DNA of 62,967 nucleotides, filler included, from Globobulimina sp. (lineage: Eukaryota), in the NCBI GenBank assembly GCA_003354225.1. It is 31 parts of 31 records of this genome, joined end to end, with 100 filler letters (N's around TTAATTAATTAA, not from the genome) between each part and the next. Parts side by side here need not be neighbours in the genome. Positions count along the whole stretch, not along the records: positions 42,735 to 44,668 come from PIVH01010440.1; 30 more parts are not named here. The stretch is one strand, 5' to 3'. This document shows, piece after piece, positions 4,073-54,408 of this stretch. The notes beneath the pieces were generated by a model, which was given only the letters and a program-made list of their open reading frames with translations, was not told where the DNA came from and ran no database searches. Every line of letters begins with the position of its first letter. Within the stretch, counting starts at the first letter, position 1. A program made the translations under genes and the position numbers.

Positions 4073-5522
4073 TATTTATACATTCTATAATGAGATACAT
4101 TTTGGAATAATTTTTGTTTGATTAACTGGAACATCACACCTTCCACAAAAGAATGCCGTAATTTCTGCCCAGCCACAGATAAATATTCACATGAAACAGT
4201 ATTGCTACGTCCCTTCATTATATGATGTATATCCTCATCATTCCAATTATTTCTATTCAAACCTTCGCCACCACGGATATTAAAATCAGGCTCATTCGCC
4301 TCAGTCTCCCAATTTGTCAATATTTCATCATCAATCCATAGCTCACTCGGAATAAAAACCGATCGGTTTTCATCTTGTTGTCTGGATACAAATTCATTCA
4401 CAGTTTGAACATAGTCATCATATCCGGCTTTCTGTATATTTCAGAGTGTGTGTTATTAATTTGTGCGATATGTATCATACTTGTTGCGTTGCTGGGATTG
4501 CGTTTAAATATTTAGACCCAGAAATATCTGCATATAGTGATTCCATCACAGTTTTAGGACATCGTGCCGGATGGCCATAATTTTTATTTTTGGATATTGT
4601 TTTGCCATTATATAATGACACAAATTCATCCATTTCATATTGAATTAAATGCGAATATGCAAACCATAAACAAGCCAAATGGATCGGATTTAAATTATCC
4701 AATAATTGTATGGTCTGTAAATGGTAGAATTCCAATCTAAATATCCAAATACATTTATCATGCAATATCCTCCAAAACCTCTCAATGACTGTATTTCTTT
4801 TACTCGATCCAGTAAATACACTGTCTGGCCCCATATTATTCCACATCAATTTTTGTAATGCTGCTGGTTCGCGACCGCCATCAAACTGCATCTCAAATGG
4901 CAATACAAATCGCATATGTTCAAAACCTGACATTGCTGATAATAAAATTGAACAGCGATGCTTGTTTCTGAGACACACACAAAATGGCACATATCGGGAA
5001 TGTCGATCCCGGCCTCCATATATCATGAAACCACAGGGCCACAATTTTTCATATTGATCACAGTGTAATCTGTGAAATGGACCACATGATAATATAGGAA
5101 ACGGGCCATTAATATTTCTGACCCCAGTACGTGGATTTCTTAATGCTACCAAATCACCGGCAGCTAAACACATAATACATTTTAATCTTGCATCCGGAAC
5201 ACGAACTAAAAAACATTAAATATTTGTATGTTATTTGTGTGCATTGGATAAACAAACAAGTGTATACATACTATTTCGTGTTGCCAGAGCAGGCTTTAAA
5301 AATTGAAAACCGTGTGTTTGTTTGTGACTTTCTTGCAATTCTTTGATGATTGCAATCAATTCTTCATCAGATATGCTGTTATATGTAAATATGTTATATT
5401 TTGAGCAATATCTATCTAAAGTTTTTCTGTTAACACAGTAACGAGCAGCTATCTCCTTGTTGGTGACGTTATGTATTTTCAACGCTCTGATAACCTCAAC
5501 GTCTTCAACAGGGATTTTAGGA
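4073..5522 (-). mobile_element. IS3EU-type DDE transposase (HTH + integrase core), introns 5206-5271 and 4432-4480
   Basis: HTH segment EIAARYCVNRKTLDRY...ISDEELIAII; core GPFHRLHCD..KLWPCGFMIYGGRD..SR..QFDGGRE..FTGSSKRNTVIERFWR with D-D-E intact. Two GT-AG introns join three ORFs in frame (ATRN|IRVP; TQQ|KAGY). Confidence 0.85.
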
Positions 5523-14248: not shown

Positions 14249-15079
14249 CATAGACAGCGAATATTGTTACGTTTTTCATTCATTTCGTTGTATATTATCA
14301 GTGGTGGAACGATATTATTTGCCTGGAATTTTAAGAAATATTACGCGGATCCACGGAAGGAGCTATTTGAGAAAGATCCAAAATATTCGCTTGATACAAA
14401 AACTAGAGATAAAATGATCAAAGATATGGCAAATAAATTTGACGAGAATATGCAATTTATAACAGATAAAAATGAGAGTATTAATGGTTTGGATGTTTTA
14501 TCAAATGGAAAATTCTTTATTTTATATTTTGGAGTTCCTAATTGCAATGATAAATGTTTGCATATTTTACAAACTATTGAAGCAAGTTTAAAATGTAAAA
14601 AATTGCAAAAATTAAAGGATTTTTTATGCGTTTTGTATATTGATATAAATATATATGATTCAGTGGAGAAATTGAATGAATTTCTGACTGAAACGTTAGA
14701 TGCCTCCGATGTAAATATTATTGGTTTAAAACCTAAAAATATGGAGACATTAAAGGAATTAATGAATGCTTTTTCTGTTTATATCTATAAATGTGATGGG
14801 GATGGAACAAATCTGGTGTTGGATCATTCGAATATAATATATTTTGTGGACAAAGATGGATTATTATATGAAATATTGGGTGGCGATGATGAAATAAATG
14901 AGGAAAATATTATTGAGCGGACATACAATTTATTGTATCACAGTGAGTCTACATTCATGGGGAAATTGAGAAATACTCTTTCTTTGACATTTCAAACAGT
15001 AACAATGAGGCAAATGCCAGATCGTCATGTCAAAAGCCAGCAAGTGCCCGATCAACTAAACGATGGTCAAAGTATATAG
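14249..15079 (+). CDS. SCO1/SenC family copper chaperone-like protein, 5' partial
   Basis: TM anchor, GKFFILYFG..NCNDKC (CxxxC) and DHSNIIYFVDKDG (conserved His). Confidence 0.82.
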   Translation, partial: HRQRILLRFSFISLYIISGGTILFAWNFKKYYADPRKELFEKDPKYSLDTKTRDKMIKDMANKFDENMQFITDKNESINGLDVLSNGKFFILYFGVPNCNDKCLHILQTIEASLKCKKLQKLKDFLCVLYIDINIYDSVEKLNEFLTETLDASDVNIIGLKPKNMETLKELMNAFSVYIYKCDGDGTNLVLDHSNIIYFVDKDGLLYEILGGDDEINEENIIERTYNLLYHSESTFMGKLRNTLSLTFQTVTMRQMPDRHVKSQQVPDQLNDGQSI

Positions 15080-33367: not shown

Positions 33368-34498
33368 ATGGCATTTTCTACTGTATTGAAGGAGCCACCG
33401 TTATTATACGATAACACGAACTCTCTTGGCTCACAAACAAATTCTGCAAATAGCGCCAGCGCCACATTCCGTTAAGAAACAACCCTTTAAAACCGTAGCA
33501 GATATATAGACAAACACACATATATACGTTATCACAGCATCAATGCGTGAATTTGCAATGTTAACGACAACAACCACTAGCACTCCAACTCGTAAATTAT
33601 TCCAATCATTCTCTACAACTGCGGATGATATGAATTGTAAGGCAGTAAAATTTGATTATAGAATGAATGATGAAACTTCAAAATCATTCGGAGCCAAAGT
33701 CTCCAATAACTCGGATGGAATACATTGCAATGTTTTTAATTGGAAATCGCAGATTAGAATCTGTCCAAATACGGTGTGTAATAAATGTCGTTGCAAACAG
33801 ATATTAAAACAGAATGTGGAAGCACAGAAAATATGGTCTGAATCTTATCGAATGAATGTTTCTAATGTTAATCCTAAATATGATAACAGAAAAATTGAAA
33901 TTGTATTTTTTGATGGTGTTTTTGCTAAATTATTAGAGTACTTTCAATCTAATGTTGATTCGCATCGAATGCCACAAAAATATGAAATATGTGAATCAAT
34001 AAAATATTTTGGAGGATTTGCAATCAATAAAAGTAATGATATCGTCATTGATAGATGTCATTTTGTCGTATTTTGGAGATGGTATCGAGGCATAACAGAT
34101 ATAATTAAAGATATTTATAATTTGTACGACTCAAAATTTCCGTTTAGATTGGATTTGTTTATCAACAGACAAGAATGTCAAAGTATTCTTGAAGCAGCAC
34201 CAGCCGGTATGTTGTTGTGTTGTTTTGTTTTATAACATCGGTTTATGTTTGTTGTTTACAGGAACGTTTGTTTTAAGATTGTCCCAATCTCAAATGAATG
34301 GCCTTGTTTTATCGTATTCGGAACCAACATTCAATCGAAATATAACTATTAAACATCTTTTATTAATAAGACAATCACAGCAGAATTATATCACAAAAAC
34401 AAATCAAAATTCGAGTCAATCGTCATCAATAAATAAATTAATAAGAAATTTTATAAAATTAAAATTTGTTTACACTCCAAATCGCATTTATAAAAAAA
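33368..34498 (+). CDS. STAT-type linker-SH2 domain protein, introns 33471-33537 and 34207-34261
   Basis: FWRWYRGI.DII.....LY.......FINRQECQSILEAAPA|GTFVLRLSQS...LVLSY...IKHLLL. Head-to-head with ubiquilin, 153 bp between the start codons. Confidence 0.82.
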
Positions 34499-35605: not shown

Positions 35606-36532
35606 TTATAACTTAGCCTTATAATTAAGTTCAATTCTAGCAACAACACGATGATGGACAGCATCAGGCCCATCACCAATCCTTAAACAACGACATAACA
35701 CATAAAAATACGGTAAATCCGTATCTTGTGAAACACCAATAGCACCATAAATTTGTATAGCTTTATCAATCACATTACAACACGCGTTACAAACTGCATT
35801 TTTTATCATCGATATATATTGCCTCGTATTGGAATTTTTTATGCCATATTTATCCATCAGACACGCAGTTTGAAAGATTAATAACCGTACTTTTTCAATA
35901 TCTATTCTTGAATTTGCAATATCATTTTGTATGCTTGTAAAAGAAGATAACGATTCACCGAAAGCAAAGCGTGACAATGCTCGATTTTTCATTAAAGCCA
36001 ATGCTTTTTCGCTCATTCCAATAAATCTCATACAGTGATGGACTCTGGCCGGCGATAAACGAACTTGCGCGATCTCAAAACCTGCGCCTTCTTCACCCAA
36101 CAAACTATCTGTCACAGACACACGAACATTATCAAATATTATCTCACAATGTCCCTCTTCATAACCAAAGCAATTTAGCTGACGAACAATTCTTACGCCC
36201 ACACAATCCATTGGTATGATGAGCATCGTTTGTTTTTTATCATTGATTCTGCCCATTAATATTGAAAATGCACAATTTGGATGAATAGCACCCGTTGTCC
36301 ACCATTTACGACCATTGATAATGTAATATTTGTTATCACTGCTTTTCACAATGGAACATTTAATATTTTTAGCATCTGACGATGCAATATCTGGCTCAGT
36401 CATTGCATAACAAGATGATATTTTCCCTGCTAACAATTGTTGTAAATATTGTTCTTTTTGTTTGTTGGTTGCATATTTACGTAAAATGTAAACATTTGGC
36501 GCATCACAATTGGTTGCAACAGGGGCTAATAA
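35606..36532 (-). CDS. Acyl-CoA dehydrogenase (ACAD10/11-like), 5' partial, C-terminal AKL
   Basis: CYAMTEPDIASSDA, INGRKWWTTGA, GFEIAQVRL, AIQIYGAIGVSQD, RIGDGPD; AKL* is PTS1-like. Confidence 0.92.
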   Translation of the reverse strand, partial: LLAPVATNCDAPNVYILRKYATNKQKEQYLQQLLAGKISSCYAMTEPDIASSDAKNIKCSIVKSSDNKYYIINGRKWWTTGAIHPNCAFSILMGRINDKKQTMLIIPMDCVGVRIVRQLNCFGYEEGHCEIIFDNVRVSVTDSLLGEEGAGFEIAQVRLSPARVHHCMRFIGMSEKALALMKNRALSRFAFGESLSSFTSIQNDIANSRIDIEKVRLLIFQTACLMDKYGIKNSNTRQYISMIKNAVCNACCNVIDKAIQIYGAIGVSQDTDLPYFYVLCRCLRIGDGPDAVHHRVVARIELNYKAKL

Positions 36533-36632: not shown

Positions 36633-38390
36633 ATCTGTAAAGCATACGATAGAGTTTGGCGAGAAGGACTATGGAAGAAACTACGAGATTACGGTTTTCC
36701 CGATAAACTTATACGAGCAATAGAAAGTAGTTACCACAATCCAGGAGCGATATTACAATTTCAAGATCAAAAAACAGAACGATTATCAATGAATGTAGGG
36801 TTACGACAAGGATGTACAATGTCCCCGATATTATGGAACTTATACATAGCTGATTTAGGAAGAGAAATCGAAAAATCAAATTTAGGAATAACGATAGGAA
36901 CTAACAATAACAATAAAAATATATCAGGAATTTTCTTCGCAGACGATATGTTACTATTTGGATCTTCCGATTACAATATGACTAAATTACTAAAGATTGT
37001 TGGTAACTACGCACAGAAATGGAAAATCGAATTCTCCGGTCCAAAAAGCTTAATCATTCCAATAAGAAGAGAAATCGATAACAATAGAAAATGGAAACTA
37101 GGCACAATGTTTATATCCGAAAATGAAGAGTCAACGATATTTATTAAAGAAGAAAAGGAAGCTAAATACTTAGGAATTACACTCAGCAAACACAGAACAG
37201 ATATTCTATCTAAACACAAAATCAGTTTATCCGATAAAACAAAAAAAGAAGCAGGAAGATGCTACAAACCAGCGACATCAACAGCAAGACCAATTACATA
37301 TGGCGCAAAAATATGGAACACATACGTGAAACCAAAAATACTACATGGAATGGCTGCAATACCCTTCAGCGACAATACCTTCACTGGAATCGATATTCAA
37401 CAACGAGAATTCATCAGGATGATTGCAAAACTACCCAGACATACACAACAAGCTGTACTATATGGCGAAACAGAATTAATTCCAATGATAATGGAAGCCG
37501 AAAAACGAACAATAAACTATTTTAACCATATCCAAAAACTTGACGACAACAATATAGTCAAATTAGTTATAATCGAACAACTAGAACTTTATCACGAAAA
37601 TCCAAATACGATAACATGGGTTCAACATGCAATAAAATGCTGCGAAAAATACAATATAAACTACTCAAATATTCCATTATCAACTACAATAAGAACTATA
37701 GTAAACGATAAATGGCTAGAAAATTACAGAAATATGGTACAAAATGCAACAACATTAAAATACTATAGAAGCAAAACTACACCAAAAACCAACTATAAAC
37801 TCAATTTGAAAGCCGGTGCTGAATACTGGTTAAAAGCCAAGTGTGGTTCACTATTTCTCAACGAACGAAGTGCTACAATATGTTCAAGATGCGAAAACAA
37901 CGAAATTGAATCCCTAGAACATTTACTATGGCTATGTCCCGATAACTATAAAATTACGAAAAATTCAGATATTCTCAAAAATCTATGGGGCATGTTACCA
38001 CAAGTATTAGAAGGTGAAACAAAATCAACAACTATACCAATAACAATTAATAAATTTATCGAAAATTCCATTATATGGTTATTAGACGATAATGTACACG
38101 GTCATATCCTAAACATGACAGGAACGATAATCAAAACCCTATATAAAAGCAGACCAGAAATCAAGATATATGAAGTAATAAACAATAATAACGATATTCT
38201 TATTCACATTGACGAAATAATCAACCAAGTCATAAATGATAATACGATATATCATAATGCTATAATCAACCAAATTGATGATGATGGCGGAGAACCTCAT
38301 TCAAACGAAACGACGAACAGACGAAATCAAGACGAAGAAACCGACAGACGAAATCAAGAAGTTCCTGACAACAGAGAAGGAATCACCTGA
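36633..38390 (+). mobile_element. Non-LTR (LINE) retrotransposon ORF2: reverse transcriptase plus C-terminal zinc knuckle, 5' partial
   Basis: KAYDRVWREGLW, GLRQGCTMSPILWNLY, FFADD, KYLG, CSRC..EIESLEHLLWLCP; uninterrupted frame with A-rich strand bias. Confidence 0.93.
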
Positions 38391-42634: not shown

Positions 42635-42840
42635 NNNNNNNNNNNNNNNNNNNNNNNNNNNNNNNNNNNNNNNNNNNNTTAATTAATTAANNNNNNNNNN
42701 NNNNNNNNNNNNNNNNNNNNNNNNNNNNNNNNNNTAAGAAAAAATGTTAAATGTCAATTAATATTTGAGTATAATTAAGGATTATTAGATAACAAATGAT
42801 TTTTCATTGATACTTTGTGAAGTTTTGTTAAGTTCAAACA

Positions 42841-43482
42841 ATGTCAACTCTTTTGCGCAGATTCGCAAGATTAGATCGGCGATTTTTTTCAACCACAACG
42901 AACCCTTTAAGATGCACAGAAAGTTTAATTCAAGAACACAAGACAATAAATCAAACATTGGATGCATTGGAAATTATAGTTGAAAGAGAGCAAGATTTGA
43001 ATGAATATATGGTGAATGATATCGGCGATTTCGTACATTGGTCCATTAACTTCTCAGATAAAATACATCATGAAAAAGAAGAGAGGATTTTGTTCCAAGC
43101 CATGGATGAACTCAAAATTCCTTTTTTATCCACCACGGCTGGTTCGATTAAAGAAATGATTTATCAGCACGACGTTTTGATTTATCATATGGATGAGATC
43201 AGGAAGGCATTGAAGATAGAAAACAATAGTTATGAGCTTAAATATCAATTATCAGAATATGTCCAGTTATTACGTTCCCATAACCGCCACGAAGACAATG
43301 TGTTGTGGCCTATGATCATTCAAAAAGTGTCTGATCATGAAATGGAGCAAATTTCGAAGGAATTTGACCGTGTTGACAAGGAAAATGAAGCAGAAATAGC
43401 CGTATTGTTCCAAATAGCACAGAGACTCATAAACAAATATACGCCAACAGTCTATGTGCATGATTTTACTCATTTTAGATAA
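42841..43482 (+). CDS. Hemerythrin (HHE) domain protein with mitochondrial-like presequence
   Basis: QEH...KIHHEKEERILF...YQH...LRSHNRHEDNVLWP di-iron ligand pattern; N-terminus MSTLLRRFARLDRRFFST; complete and intronless. Confidence 0.9.
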   Translation: MSTLLRRFARLDRRFFSTTTNPLRCTESLIQEHKTINQTLDALEIIVEREQDLNEYMVNDIGDFVHWSINFSDKIHHEKEERILFQAMDELKIPFLSTTAGSIKEMIYQHDVLIYHMDEIRKALKIENNSYELKYQLSEYVQLLRSHNRHEDNVLWPMIIQKVSDHEMEQISKEFDRVDKENEAEIAVLFQIAQRLINKYTPTVYVHDFTHFR

Positions 43483-43702
43483 TTAATATGTATCACAAAT
43501 TGTGAATTTGTGAATAAAAATATTATTTTTGAATACTTGTTAGTGTGATGAATGGTATATAATTTTTTTTTGTGATGTGTTTGAATGTGTCTGTGATAAA
43601 CTATAATTAACTTATATATATCCTTGCACAATTTAAATTATTTAATTTTTGTTTACAAACCAAAGTAAGGTTTTTGCAAAAAACGCCATTGGTTCCTTTC
43701 AA

Positions 43703-44668
43703 ATGTCACGCTTTGTCAACAACGCTCATTGTACAGTATTTATGATAAGATCTAATAATCCTAAATTAATACATTTAAATTTCAATTTTAGAACCTGTTC
43801 AAAGCGATATTTCTCAACTCGCACAACACCATTAATTGCATATTCTGATGAACATCTTGAACAGTATAGAGTCATTGGTGATGAATATGCAGATTGTATT
43901 GTGAAGGAATTATATGACAAAAACCCCAATCCAATAAAATCATTGTCACCTTTGTTATATTTACAAAACAACCAAGAGCCGCCAGATGATTTACCATCGA
44001 TATTGAAAGAATATTTCGCTGTTTCAAATATCAAATATCCATCGTGGTACAATGCAAAACGAGTATTAAAGGGACAGGAATTTGGAACTACACATTTAAG
44101 CCAGTTAATATCGCAGAAAATGTCATTATTATCGTATTCGTTGCCAGTTTCATATGGTTTTCGAGGTGCAACAGTATTATCGTTATCTGAGCAGTTATTA
44201 AAAACGCTTCCGACAAATGAATTTCTTCAACATGTGATCGCATTGAATTCTTTCTCATTGGATGGTGATTGCAGTCATGGAATTAGATCGCTTCAAACAA
44301 CGCGATTGATTCATGCAGCGATACGCTATCATTTCTCTCATAAAAATGTAGCTGAAACGGACACTAAGCATTCTGATATTGATTATTTACCGGTGAATCA
44401 GACTGCATTATCACATACGTTGTATGGCGCATTTTATTTAAGCAGTTTAGAAGGGATTGTTAAAAGTGGTCAGAGTTACAATGAAGAAGAACAAAAGGAT
44501 TATATGCATTTGTGGACTGTTTGTGGACATTTCTTGGGCATTGATGAAAGTTTATTGATTTTGAATGATGATATTGATATCGTTAAAAATCAGTTGATTA
44601 CAAATATTAATAAACATGAACTTATTTTAGGTCATATCAATTATACAATACGGAGCAAATATCATTGA
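43703..44668 (+). CDS. Lcp/MpaB (DUF2236) heme oxygenase-family protein with mitochondrial-like presequence, probably 3' partial
   Basis: GDEYAD, PSWYN..RVLKGQEF, SLPVSY, RLIHAAIR (heme His), PVNQ, DYMHLW..CGHFLGI; presequence ends RTCSKRYFST. Confidence 0.85.
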   Translation: MSRFVNNAHCTVFMIRSNNPKLIHLNFNFRTCSKRYFSTRTTPLIAYSDEHLEQYRVIGDEYADCIVKELYDKNPNPIKSLSPLLYLQNNQEPPDDLPSILKEYFAVSNIKYPSWYNAKRVLKGQEFGTTHLSQLISQKMSLLSYSLPVSYGFRGATVLSLSEQLLKTLPTNEFLQHVIALNSFSLDGDCSHGIRSLQTTRLIHAAIRYHFSHKNVAETDTKHSDIDYLPVNQTALSHTLYGAFYLSSLEGIVKSGQSYNEEEQKDYMHLWTVCGHFLGIDESLLILNDDIDIVKNQLITNINKHELILGHINYTIRSKYH

Positions 44669-45442: not shown

Positions 45443-46702
45443 TTATAAAAAATATTGTTTACAAATATTAAATTCACCATTTTTAATCATTTCTCGTAAT
45501 ATTTTCTTTGCCATTTTCCTGTTAGGAGTTTTGGGCAATATATCCAGAAAAAAAATATCTTTTACTCTAAGTGCAGGGTCACCCATCGCTTCATGACACA
45601 TTTGCATTAATTCCTGTTTGATTGCATTTGTATCATATGCTTGCATTGCATTGCTTGTTTAACACACAAATGCCACCGGCACCTCACCTGACAAAGATTC
45701 ATCAATCAAAGAGTTTGGATAACCGACCACAGCAACTTCCTCCACCGCTTTATGTCGGTATAATACATTTTCAATATCAATGGGTACCATCAATCTACCA
45801 ATACTCGTTTTAATTCTATCATTTTTCCTCCCTAATAAATATAACAAACCATCATTTGTGTCAATATAGCCTTGATCTCCAGTACATATCCAGCCATCAT
45901 CACTTTTAACAGTTTCTGTTAATTCTCTGTTATTCAAATATTCCACCATTGCCGAATCATCTTCCTTTTTAACCATAATCTCCCCATCATTTGCAACTTT
46001 AATTAATATTTTATCATAAAGTGGAGTACCAACCGGAACATGAATGTTCATATTATCATTCACTGTAAAATCAGCAATTAATGTATCCAAAATGGATGGA
46101 TCTAACTGAGATATCCAAAGAGTTTCCGAAGCACCATAACTATGAATGAATTTTGTATTTGCTGAAAATAAATGTTTCTTTAAATAGCACACAGTTTTAA
46201 ATGGTATAAAGTCTCCGCTATATCCTACAGCCTCCATATTATTGAATTTTTTGTTCAAATGATAAATATCACTTTAATACATATATAGTGAACGTTGCGA
46301 TATATCCCATTGGTTAACCCCTTTGTTGATGACGAATCAAATGGAGGGAGCGGTACGATCAACCAATGACATATATCGTTTAATCAATATTTTACCTTAA
46401 TGCACGACCAAAAAAAAGTGTACGTGATATGGACGGGTGCTTATTTTCACATAAATCATGCCAATGTTCAGGACTTTGAGATTTATGTTTATTTGCATAT
46501 ACAATCGTGCTGCCTTCCAATAAAACAGACATTCTCTGTAAAACACCTGGGCCGGCGAGCAATGGACATAATACTAATGTTGAGTCTTTATTTGGTATTG
46601 TTTTGCCAGCAAATGTAGTGTGCGTAGTATTTGTTCCATGAAATATCGTATTATGCGAATATAAGCAACCTTTGGGTGATCCAGTGGTTCCCGAAGTGAA
46701 TA
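45443..46702 (-). pseudogene. AMP-dependent acyl-CoA synthetase/ligase, 5' partial, intron 46272-46395, one in-frame TAA at 45659-45661
   Basis: YFTSGTTGSPKG, YGASE, GWICTGDQG, GRKNDRIK, LPKTPNRK; the C-terminal ORF is in the same frame after the stop. Confidence 0.8.
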
Positions 46703-53224: not shown

Positions 53225-53272
53225 GTTTCACTTAACAGTTTTCCTTTTCGTATTAGTCATTACTACTAAATA

Positions 53273-54408
53273 ATGGGCCAGTCGCCAGAACATCTTGTGT
53301 TAGCATTTGGATTGACTCTTGCAGCGGGACTAGCAACTACATTTGGAGCAGCATTAGCTTTTTGTATTCCTCCCACATACATTGAAATATTACCAATATC
53401 TTTAGCGTTCTCAGCAGGAGTAATGATATATGTGTCATTTATTGAAATAACACAAAAAGGGCTCGATGCATTTGAAACAGAACTAAGCAAAACACATTCA
53501 ACCGACAAAGCAATATATTTGTCGCACATTTATTTATCAATTTCGTTTTTCTGTGGGATAATTATTGGATATCTTATCGATTTTATTGTGCATCTTTTAG
53601 GATACAAACATGACATTGATATCGAACAAGAAATCAAACATAAAAACGATGCCAAACCAAAACCAAAACCAAGTGAAAAGTTGCATGTTAAAAGCAAACA
53701 TTACTCGCAGATGCTGTATTTCTTATGTTCTACAAACAGTAATGTCTGCTTTTAAAATTAATGCAACTTTTAAGTGTTTCATCTATGGAATTATTGCCAA
53801 ATAAGCATATACATTCATTGGGTGCGTGTGCTAATGATATAAGTATAGAGTCTATAGACGCAACGGAAATAACTTCGCTATCTCCACGCCATTCGGACGA
53901 GAATGAAGAAGTGAATGAATCCACTGCAGAAAAGGAAACAGAGCGAAAAGCATTGATTAAAATGTCATTAGTTACTGGCGTAGCCATTGGAATCCATAAT
54001 TTCCCGGAAGGATTGGCAACATTTGTGTCAACATTGGCCGATCCGACGTTGGGTGTAAGCATAGCAGTGGCCATTGCAATTCATAATATACCGGAAGGAA
54101 TCTGTGTGGCTATGCCTATATTTTTTGCAACGGGGAGTAAACGCAAAGCATTTTTTTGGGCGTTTTTAAGCGGATTATTTGAACCGATTGGTGCGTTGAT
54201 TGGTTATGCTATTATTGATTCCATGTTTAATGATGTTGTATTTGGTGTGTTGTTTGGTTTTGTGGCTGGTATTATGATTTATATCTCATTTAAAGCAATA
54301 TTACCGACTGCGAGGAGGAAAGATAAAAATGATAAATTTACGTCACTTCTAGTGTTTACTGGATTTTTAGTCATGGATATTAGTCTCATCTTGTTTAAAA
54401 TAGCATGA
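53273..54408 (+). CDS. ZIP family zinc transporter (ZupT-like), one intron at about 53680-53774
   Basis: LAFSAGVMIYVSFIEI, IHNFPEGLATF, IHNIPEGI.VAMP, GLFEPIGA; intron boundaries are tentative. Confidence 0.92.

Follow-up and report, generated by a model that had tools for sequence, protein, structure and literature searches.

Two genes that lie head to tail on a small contig of the foraminifer Globobulimina sp. (assembly GCA_003354225.1) raise the question of whether a hemerythrin-like protein and a haem oxygenase came together, and are sent together into the mitochondrion, as one system, or whether they are two genes that happen to share a contig. The window, that is, the whole stretch of DNA that we analysed, is 62,967 bases long and consists of 31 unrelated contigs of 1936-1933 bp each, sorted by length and joined by identical spacers (N44-TTAATTAATTAA-N44); because separate contigs were joined in this way, neighbourhoods seen across a spacer are artefacts of concatenation. 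The sole real context of the two genes is the contig at 42735-44668 (1934 bp, GC content 0.319), which has a spacer on each side. The initial annotation had described on it two co-oriented genes, each coding for a bacterial-type metalloprotein and apparently targeted to mitochondria, and had proposed that they form a laterally acquired module. Their coordinates hold (first open reading frame, ORF1, 42841-43482; second, ORF2, 43703-44668; both on the plus strand), as do the AT-rich gap of 220 bp between them (43483-43702) and their assignment to bacterial-type families, one di-iron (HHE) and one haem-dependent (Lcp/MpaB). We argue here that they are, on balance, two ordinary genes, separately acquired and since adapted to their host, each of which appears to have gained a mitochondrial presequence.

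What does the first gene encode? ORF1 is a complete coding sequence of 213 aa with a TAA stop at 43480-43482, and a further TAA, in the same frame, precedes its ATG by 9 nt. Its product matches Pfam PF01814 over positions 4-127 of the 127 in the profile (E 3.4e-16; 60.3 bits, cut-off 25.3), which bears out its identification as a hemerythrin-type protein. Across an alignment of 60 sequences the di-metal ligands H33, H76, E81, H110, H147 and E151 are invariant, and H77 and E80 are conserved at >=90%. The AlphaFold (AF2) model, with a predicted local distance difference test score (pLDDT) of 92, is a helical bundle whose long helices (24-48, 55-90, 101-125 and 130-162) carry the predicted ligands; two more helices follow at the C-terminus, and at the N-terminus a helix of low confidence (2-13) stands apart from the core. 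Foldseek gave no row at E<=1e-3 with this model. At the top of its list stood two HHE proteins, 3cax and 2p0n (prob 1.00 and E 3e-3 to 3e-2), followed by the hemerythrin domain of FBXL5 and by 6q09, a homologue of Rv2633c. A phmmer search against PDB sequences returned nothing below E 0.14, and ESM Atlas scores of 0.85-0.87 to bacterial hemerythrin-HHE clusters, under the 0.9 level, can be taken as a lead only. Classical hemerythrin carries O2 by reversible binding at a site of five His, one Glu and one Asp. Judged from the alignment, the ligand pattern of ORF1 is of the HHE/RIC/FBXL5 type rather than that of a shown O2 carrier, and classical hemerythrin is absent among the Foldseek rows listed, no direct comparison having been made.

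This gene is not peculiar to the locus. A word-index search with ORF1 returned no relatives but a pair of EukProt proteins from Globobulimina turgida, 87% and 51% identical to it, the closer of which (P010213) is a transcript product. The exhaustive HMMER search gave 1247 proteins at E<=1e-3, just one of them at E<=1e-30; the remaining matches are 23-40% identical and mostly ~180 aa long. They include proteins of Nonionella stella (P0033, P0147) and Bolivina argentea (P0176, P0039, P0040), a further EukProt transcript (P0111), proteins of two metamonad isolates with two domains in tandem, and proteins from bacterial metagenome-assembled genomes. This is thus a family of several paralogues, shared by no fewer than three other named foraminifera (G. 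turgida, N. stella and B. argentea). P0033 of N. stella and P0176 of B. argentea fall in the same 90% cluster and are nearly identical (tree distance ~0.005), a likeness that may reflect cross-contamination of the transcript sets or a shared source.

In a quick tree of the family (78 rows), all seven foraminiferal rows lie on one side of a branch with a support of 88 in the Shimodaira-Hasegawa-like approximate likelihood-ratio test (SH-aLRT). The group takes in two other rows and adjoins the metamonad domains (SH-aLRT 90), within the bacterial spread. Among eukaryotes outside the foraminifera, it is the metamonad proteins that come closest to the foraminiferal family in this tree; both P0027 (GEM-RC1) and P0030 (TZLM3-RCL) carry tandem double HHE domains and a Cys-rich C-terminal tail, and they are without an extension of the ORF1 type. 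It tells against leaning on this placement that both supports lie under the level to which the tool gives a star and that the foraminiferal rows are flagged for composition bias, and we regard a position beside metamonads inside the bacterial spread as suggestive only.

Comparison with known di-iron systems narrows down what ORF1 could be. The stand-alone bacterial HHE proteins (~180 aa, PF01814; NMB1532, 2p0n, and PF0695, 3cax) have the same domain and mature length at 28-37% identity, and share with ORF1 the invariant H/HH..E/H/H...E ligand columns and the four-helix bundle. ORF1 differs from them in its 23-residue basic N-terminal extension, in its C-terminal helix pair and in grouping with eukaryotic (foraminiferal and metamonad) sequences. 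We know of no established function for these bacterial proteins. The RIC proteins (YtfE, ScdA, DnrN) likewise have a hemerythrin-like four-helix di-iron domain with His and Glu ligands. ORF1 is nevertheless not a member of that family, because the Pfam scan found PF01814 alone and no ScdA_N domain, and because the match to the RIC model TIGR03652 (E 2.8e-5) spans residues 130-201 only and reaches 24 bits, far below the cut-off of 204.7. A RIC-like mode of action is borrowed here as a hypothesis, by analogy. RIC proteins are described as acting against damage by nitric oxide (NO) and H2O2 to Fe-S enzymes, and occur also in the protist Trichomonas (PMC9268430). Hemerythrin-type genes of Mastigamoeba, Monocercomonoides and Spironucleus, which like ORF1 represent a bacterial-type di-iron protein in a low-oxygen eukaryote, are reported as genes of oxygen stress or sensing (PMC8136499, PMC6759080). 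The set of Monocercomonoides is described as mainly derived from lateral gene transfer (PMC6759080, PMC8136499), and its genome paper cites Campylobacter hemerythrins as shielding Fe-S enzymes (PMC6759080). Organelle-targeting extensions like that of ORF1 are not described in the portions of these protist reports at hand.

The second gene is less easily recognised. The reading frame of ORF2 has 321 codons and a TGA that forms the last three bases of the contig; the stretch 43703-44629 (+; 309 codons and one base) would be the 5' exon of a gene for a homologue of the Lcp/MpaB-family (PF09995) haem oxygenases. Taken alone, ORF2 falls under the Pfam cut-off for PF09995 (17 bits vs 23, E 0.0063). 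Profile and model comparisons nonetheless identify it as a true member of the family, because PF09995 is present in nine of nine database homologues, a profile of ORF2 and its homologues aligns with residues 55-353 of the rubber oxygenase Lcp K30 (5o1l/5o1m; E 2.4e-46), and Foldseek with the AlphaFold model gives 5o1l and 5o1m as sole significant matches (E 2e-6, prob 1.00). The Lcp/MpaB identity proposed at first can therefore be retained, with the addition that the gene is incomplete, as homology ends ~12 codons before the TGA.

The residues of the active site tell a similar story of kinship without identity of function. By hidden Markov model alignment to 5o1l, His204 (codon 44312-44314, +) equals His198 of Lcp K30, the proximal haem ligand, and is invariant in 56 sequences. 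Equally invariant in these are T171, the counterpart of the conserved DUF2236 residue Thr168, and G155, a Gly at the place of Glu148, the base of the channel. Arg164, the other conserved DUF2236 residue, corresponds to a K in ORF2 (position 167) and is R in >=90% of relatives; Lys167, the distal haem ligand, corresponds to a P, where close relatives have R and bacterial ones E. The roles of these five Lcp K30 residues are taken from a study in which Lys167 is conserved in only 59% among Lcps (PMC5522427). From these correspondences ORF2 is likely a haem-binding oxygenase, with the fold and the proximal His of Lcp K30, in the family (PF09995/DUF2236) to which fungal MpaB also belongs. We also considered a rubber oxygenase, which is unlikely because the equivalents of Lys167 and Glu148 are lost, because the N-terminus bears an import-like extension where Lcp has a secretion signal, and because the gene is cut.

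The closest homologues of ORF2 (P0001, P0002 and P0003) share 45-47% identity with it, and homologues of the Cytophagales type 30-33%. Searching with the profile of the ORF2 family gave 903 matches at E<=1e-10, and the named ones among the best 120 are mostly from Cytophagales or other Bacteroidota; no EukProt protein occurs among the nine homologues of ORF2 or in the best 120 of those 903. In the tree, ORF2 sits on a long branch in a clade (support 100) with three environmental proteins (45-47% identity), within a radiation in which most named members are Bacteroidota.

Where, then, does this gene end? Its homologues are 345-415 aa long. ORF2 aligns with them only up to NINKHELILG (residue ~310), the relatives continue for ~100 residues, and the part of the PF09995 domain that is missing at the C-terminus includes columns nearly invariant in them. 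Homology breaks at TTAG|GTCATA, 39 bases short of the contig end, and the final 11 codons with the TGA (44630-44668, +) match nothing in nine relatives; the model has pLDDT <50 for residues 307-321. Canonical GT-AG introns are used in this genome, as in the gene of an AMP-binding enzyme at 46230-46440 (-), where an intron of ~120 nt reads AG|GTAAA...AAAG. Two observations speak for a different ending: a splice joint at 44630 was reported in none of the four sequencing runs compared, and contigs of two of them, X5 and X6, are colinear through 44630-44668 and beyond. For these reasons the TGA could be the real stop of a shortened protein. Considering the homology, we still think that the tail, a candidate GT intron start, is probably the beginning of an intron cut off by the contig end.

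Both proteins start ahead of their bacterial counterparts. Most of the ~180-aa hemerythrin-like homologues begin at residues 24-27 of ORF1, and bacterial MpaB homologues begin ~40 residues past the ATG of ORF2. The additional stretches are putative mitochondrial presequences, at 42841-42909 (+; residues 1-23, with R14-F-F|S17) and at 43703-43816 (+; residues 1-38, ending R35-Y-F|S38). The motifs RRFFST (residues 13-18 of ORF1) and KRYFST (residues 34-39 of ORF2), as well as the near absence of acidic residues, had been pointed out from the start and are indeed there: D12 is the single acidic residue of ORF1 ahead of residue 27, and ORF2 has none ahead of D49. Both stretches are positive, acid-poor and hydroxylated. 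The relevant cleavage motif is the one defined as R-2/R-3 for MPP and Icp55. The extension of ORF1 has a net charge of +4, one acidic residue in the first 20 and an 11-residue hydrophobic moment of 1.03, that is, it is strongly amphipathic; that of ORF2 has a net charge of +6, no acidic residue in the first 35, and pLDDT <50 in the model (residues 1-41).

The same composition recurs among relatives. Eight foraminiferal or environmental relatives of ORF1 and two long MpaB relatives are all net-positive with 0-1 acidic residues in the first 20, a mark that separates them from 93 bacterial hemerythrin-like homologues (on average 3.7 acidic residues and a net charge of -1.3). Variants of the motif (R-F-F-S, R-C-F-S, R-Y-F-S, R-F-C-S and R-L-C-S) stand just ahead of the conserved domain in hemerythrin-like proteins of the Globobulimina type and in the MpaB clade. 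We looked at specificity in the 45 ATG-initiated reading frames of >=100 aa in the window, seeking the motif in the first 45 residues: it is present in four of them, and ORF1 is the only one to combine it with the charge criterion for the first 20 residues. Also, a contig of a related organism lacks 27 nt at 43712 and has 6 nt more after 44380, both in frame, and it carries 5 additional nt immediately ahead of the ATG; indels that keep the frame inside ORF2 and not outside it support translation from 43703.

Do these extensions really lead to mitochondria? They could instead direct the proteins elsewhere, to the endoplasmic reticulum (ER), a membrane or peroxisome-associated compartments, or be tails specific to the lineage with no role in targeting. 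Pfam describes fungal MpaB as ER-bound, yet neither extension has the hydrophobic core of a signal peptide, and a PTS2-like peroxisomal motif was not seen by eye in that of ORF2. The extension of ORF2 is only weakly amphipathic (moment 0.55), with few Arg and two basic residues in all among the first 20; against this stands the extension of ORF1, which is Arg-rich, short and amphipathic. Sequences of the extensions differ widely among paralogues, but variable sequence with conserved composition is typical of presequences, and in both families an R-x-F/C-S motif lies a few residues ahead of the conserved domain. On these grounds we find it unlikely that the extensions are something other than mitochondrial presequences. 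There are points that mitochondrial import has to accommodate, beyond the poor amphipathicity of ORF2: P0039 and P0040 of B. argentea are without the R-x-[FYLC]-[SA] motif, the charge criterion for the first 35 residues picks out five of the 45 reading frames in the window, ORF2 included, and the assignment draws on composition, on comparison and on the cleavage motif. That bacterial homologues lack these basic, acid-poor fronts agrees with the initial proposal that they resemble presequences, and we take it as fairly likely that both are mitochondrial presequences and that both proteins are imported, with greater confidence for ORF1 than for the two jointly.

Elsewhere in the window, the reading frame at 33510-34232 (+), which has no Pfam match, starts with a front (M...TRKLFQSFSTT) whose R..F.FST flavour recalls both extensions, and may encode another presequence-bearing protein. 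SCO1/SenC (14249-15076, +) and an acyl-CoA dehydrogenase (35609-36532, -) are typical mitochondrial proteins; they cannot serve as reference presequences because their N-terminal sides run off their contigs.

An altogether different explanation would be contamination or a chimeric assembly, the pair then being no real foraminiferal locus. Base composition argues otherwise, both genes being host-like in GC content and in GC content at third codon positions (GC3 of 0.366 and 0.269, at or within the range of ten other genes of the window, 0.24-0.34), as does the 87% identity of the hemerythrin-like protein with the G. turgida transcript product, which includes an extension that bacteria lack. Near-identical contigs occur in X5, a run of another study (49 of 56 pieces at >=99%), and contigs 90-99% alike in two further runs, which are presumed to be of RNA, no listed run being on record as RNA. 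Both genes are covered by contigs from three other organisms. In X1, the likely source run, depth is ~5-6 and the sequence breaks into two contigs (42766-43611 and 43798-44668) that show 0 differences from the window and no conflicting continuation. The weak spot is between them, since no piece among those listed bridges the join at 43612-43797. X5 contigs, for their part, have loose ends: they part from the window at 43649, with 96 unmatched letters following, and at 44071, with 255 unmatched letters preceding. Of the two risks that the initial annotation had named, a contaminant is unlikely, and a chimera is less easily dismissed in view of the low depth, the unbridged join and the loose ends; all in all, we consider it most improbable that the contig is either contaminant or chimera. 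Parts of the spacer between the genes are without cover in three of the four runs (43612-43797 in X1; ~43450-43680 in X6 and X10), which says nothing about transcription units.

Granted a foraminiferal locus, is it a module? The proposal would be that a hemerythrin-like protein and a haem oxygenase were acquired or retained together and cooperate in the mitochondrion; the di-iron protein could, for example, hand over or buffer O2 or NO for the oxygenase under hypoxia. Bacteriohemerythrin and methane monooxygenase offer the analogy of an oxygenase with an O2-binding partner, and by that analogy an O2-dependent haem enzyme in a low-oxygen organism might gain from one. The two genes are co-oriented and 220 bp apart, their extensions are alike with near-identical R-[FY]-F-S-T ends, and both occur in the runs of the same related organisms. 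To see whether bacteria keep such genes together, as the initial annotation had suggested checking, we scanned the neighbourhoods of MpaB homologues at 19 genome and 80 metagenome loci (750 kb, 5845 reading frames of >=60 aa), whose MpaB relatives are only 25-36% identical to ORF2, the loci of the 45-47% relatives lying outside the scan. Within flanks of ~5-6 kb, HHE genes at E<=1e-3 were found at 0 of these 99 bacterial or metagenomic loci; as a positive control, the same HHE model scores ORF1 at 4.5e-62.

The phylogenies and the distribution of the two families are equally unhelpful to a module. The nearest relatives of ORF1 and ORF2 fall in different bacterial radiations. EukProt transcript sets of three named foraminifera (G. 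turgida, N. stella and B. argentea) contain the hemerythrin-like family, whereas no EukProt protein occurs among the MpaB homologues examined (the nine homologues and the best 120 of 903). The linkage itself is seen on this one low-coverage contig only, and the HHE/RIC/FBXL5 kind of ligand pattern in ORF1 is not that of a shown O2 carrier. A module acquired or acting jointly is thus not supported, and we judge it improbable. Of the lateral module first proposed, what survives is the bacterial ancestry of both genes, which the trees make plausible; joint acquisition and joint action lack support, given the absence of HHE genes from all the loci scanned and the different radiations, and the candidate for a new two-gene system, known from a single contig, is left without support. 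A more elaborate version, in which low-oxygen foraminifera have a lineage-wide family of HHE proteins that is related to those of anaerobic metamonads, is imported into mitochondria and buffers NO or O2 or protects Fe-S enzymes, and in which one Globobulimina copy has become coupled, genomically and functionally, to an imported haem oxygenase, seems to us very improbable. If true, a denitrifying mitochondrion would harbour the organellar equivalent of a hemerythrin that feeds or shields an oxygenase.

We therefore return to two separate nuclear genes of a Globobulimina-like foraminifer, which would stand head to tail on a small contig by chance. Gene 1 encodes a complete four-helix-bundle di-iron protein of the HHE class, from a family with several paralogues in several low-oxygen foraminifera; gene 2 encodes, as far as the contig reaches, residues 1 to ~310 of a haem b oxygenase with globin fold, the remainder lying past the contig end, probably after an intron. 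Both derive from bacterial-type families, in different radiations, and their base composition is now host-like. Each has acquired at its N-terminus a basic extension, poor in acidic residues and with R-[FY]-F-S-T at its end, which would be a presequence cut by MPP and Icp55, and the mature proteins would act in the mitochondrial matrix. What the genes are, their folds, the conservation of the ligands, the extensions and the occurrence in related organisms are established by the analysis; import, function, the intron and the independence of the two genes are inferred. There, by analogy with RIC and the Campylobacter hemerythrins, the HHE protein might guard or repair iron or Fe-S centres labile to O2 or NO, or else sense O2 or NO. 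Foraminifera are reported to express denitrification genes and pyruvate:ferredoxin oxidoreductase (PMC8153729), to which either role would be relevant. For the MpaB homologue we envisage haem b bound by H204 and an O2-dependent cleavage of a C=C bond in a lipid or isoprenoid-like compound other than rubber. Taken as a whole, with its separate imports and proposed functions, this is the explanation that we favour and think rather probable.

How much of this is new? Hemerythrin-type genes in anaerobic protists and the PF09995 family are already known. Our literature search found no relevant paper linking hemerythrin with foraminifera and none joining hemerythrin with DUF2236; the word hemerythrin has 0 occurrences in the main texts of Woehle 2018, Woehle 2022 and Gomaa 2021, the supplements of the last, which are outside this scope, being a place that might list such transcripts. 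A foraminifer-wide family of HHE proteins with apparent presequences would be mildly new. Foraminifera that denitrify or tolerate anoxia play an important part in the nitrogen cycle of the sea, and there is little understanding of the way in which their mitochondria deal with NO and with fluctuating O2. A conserved HHE family that is apparently directed to mitochondria in Globobulimina, Nonionella and Bolivina is a concrete candidate for such a role, and the MpaB/Lcp homologue, a haem enzyme dependent on O2, would be an unexpected addition to that compartment. Because the two-gene system is unsupported, the value of the locus lies in its single genes and their targeting.

The other contigs of the window carry eukaryotic genes (ankyrin, kelch, RING, ubiquilin, lipin LNS2, RGS, SET/MATH, reverse transcriptase and integrase core). 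Retroelement fragments lie on separate contigs, namely an RVT_1 reverse transcriptase reading frame at 36633-38387 (+) and an integrase-core reading frame at 4478-5215 (-). In a gene for a ZIP zinc transporter (53270-54405, +), two reading frames overlap around 53743-53752, a split that could reflect a frameshift or a misassembly, or else an intron of very small size.

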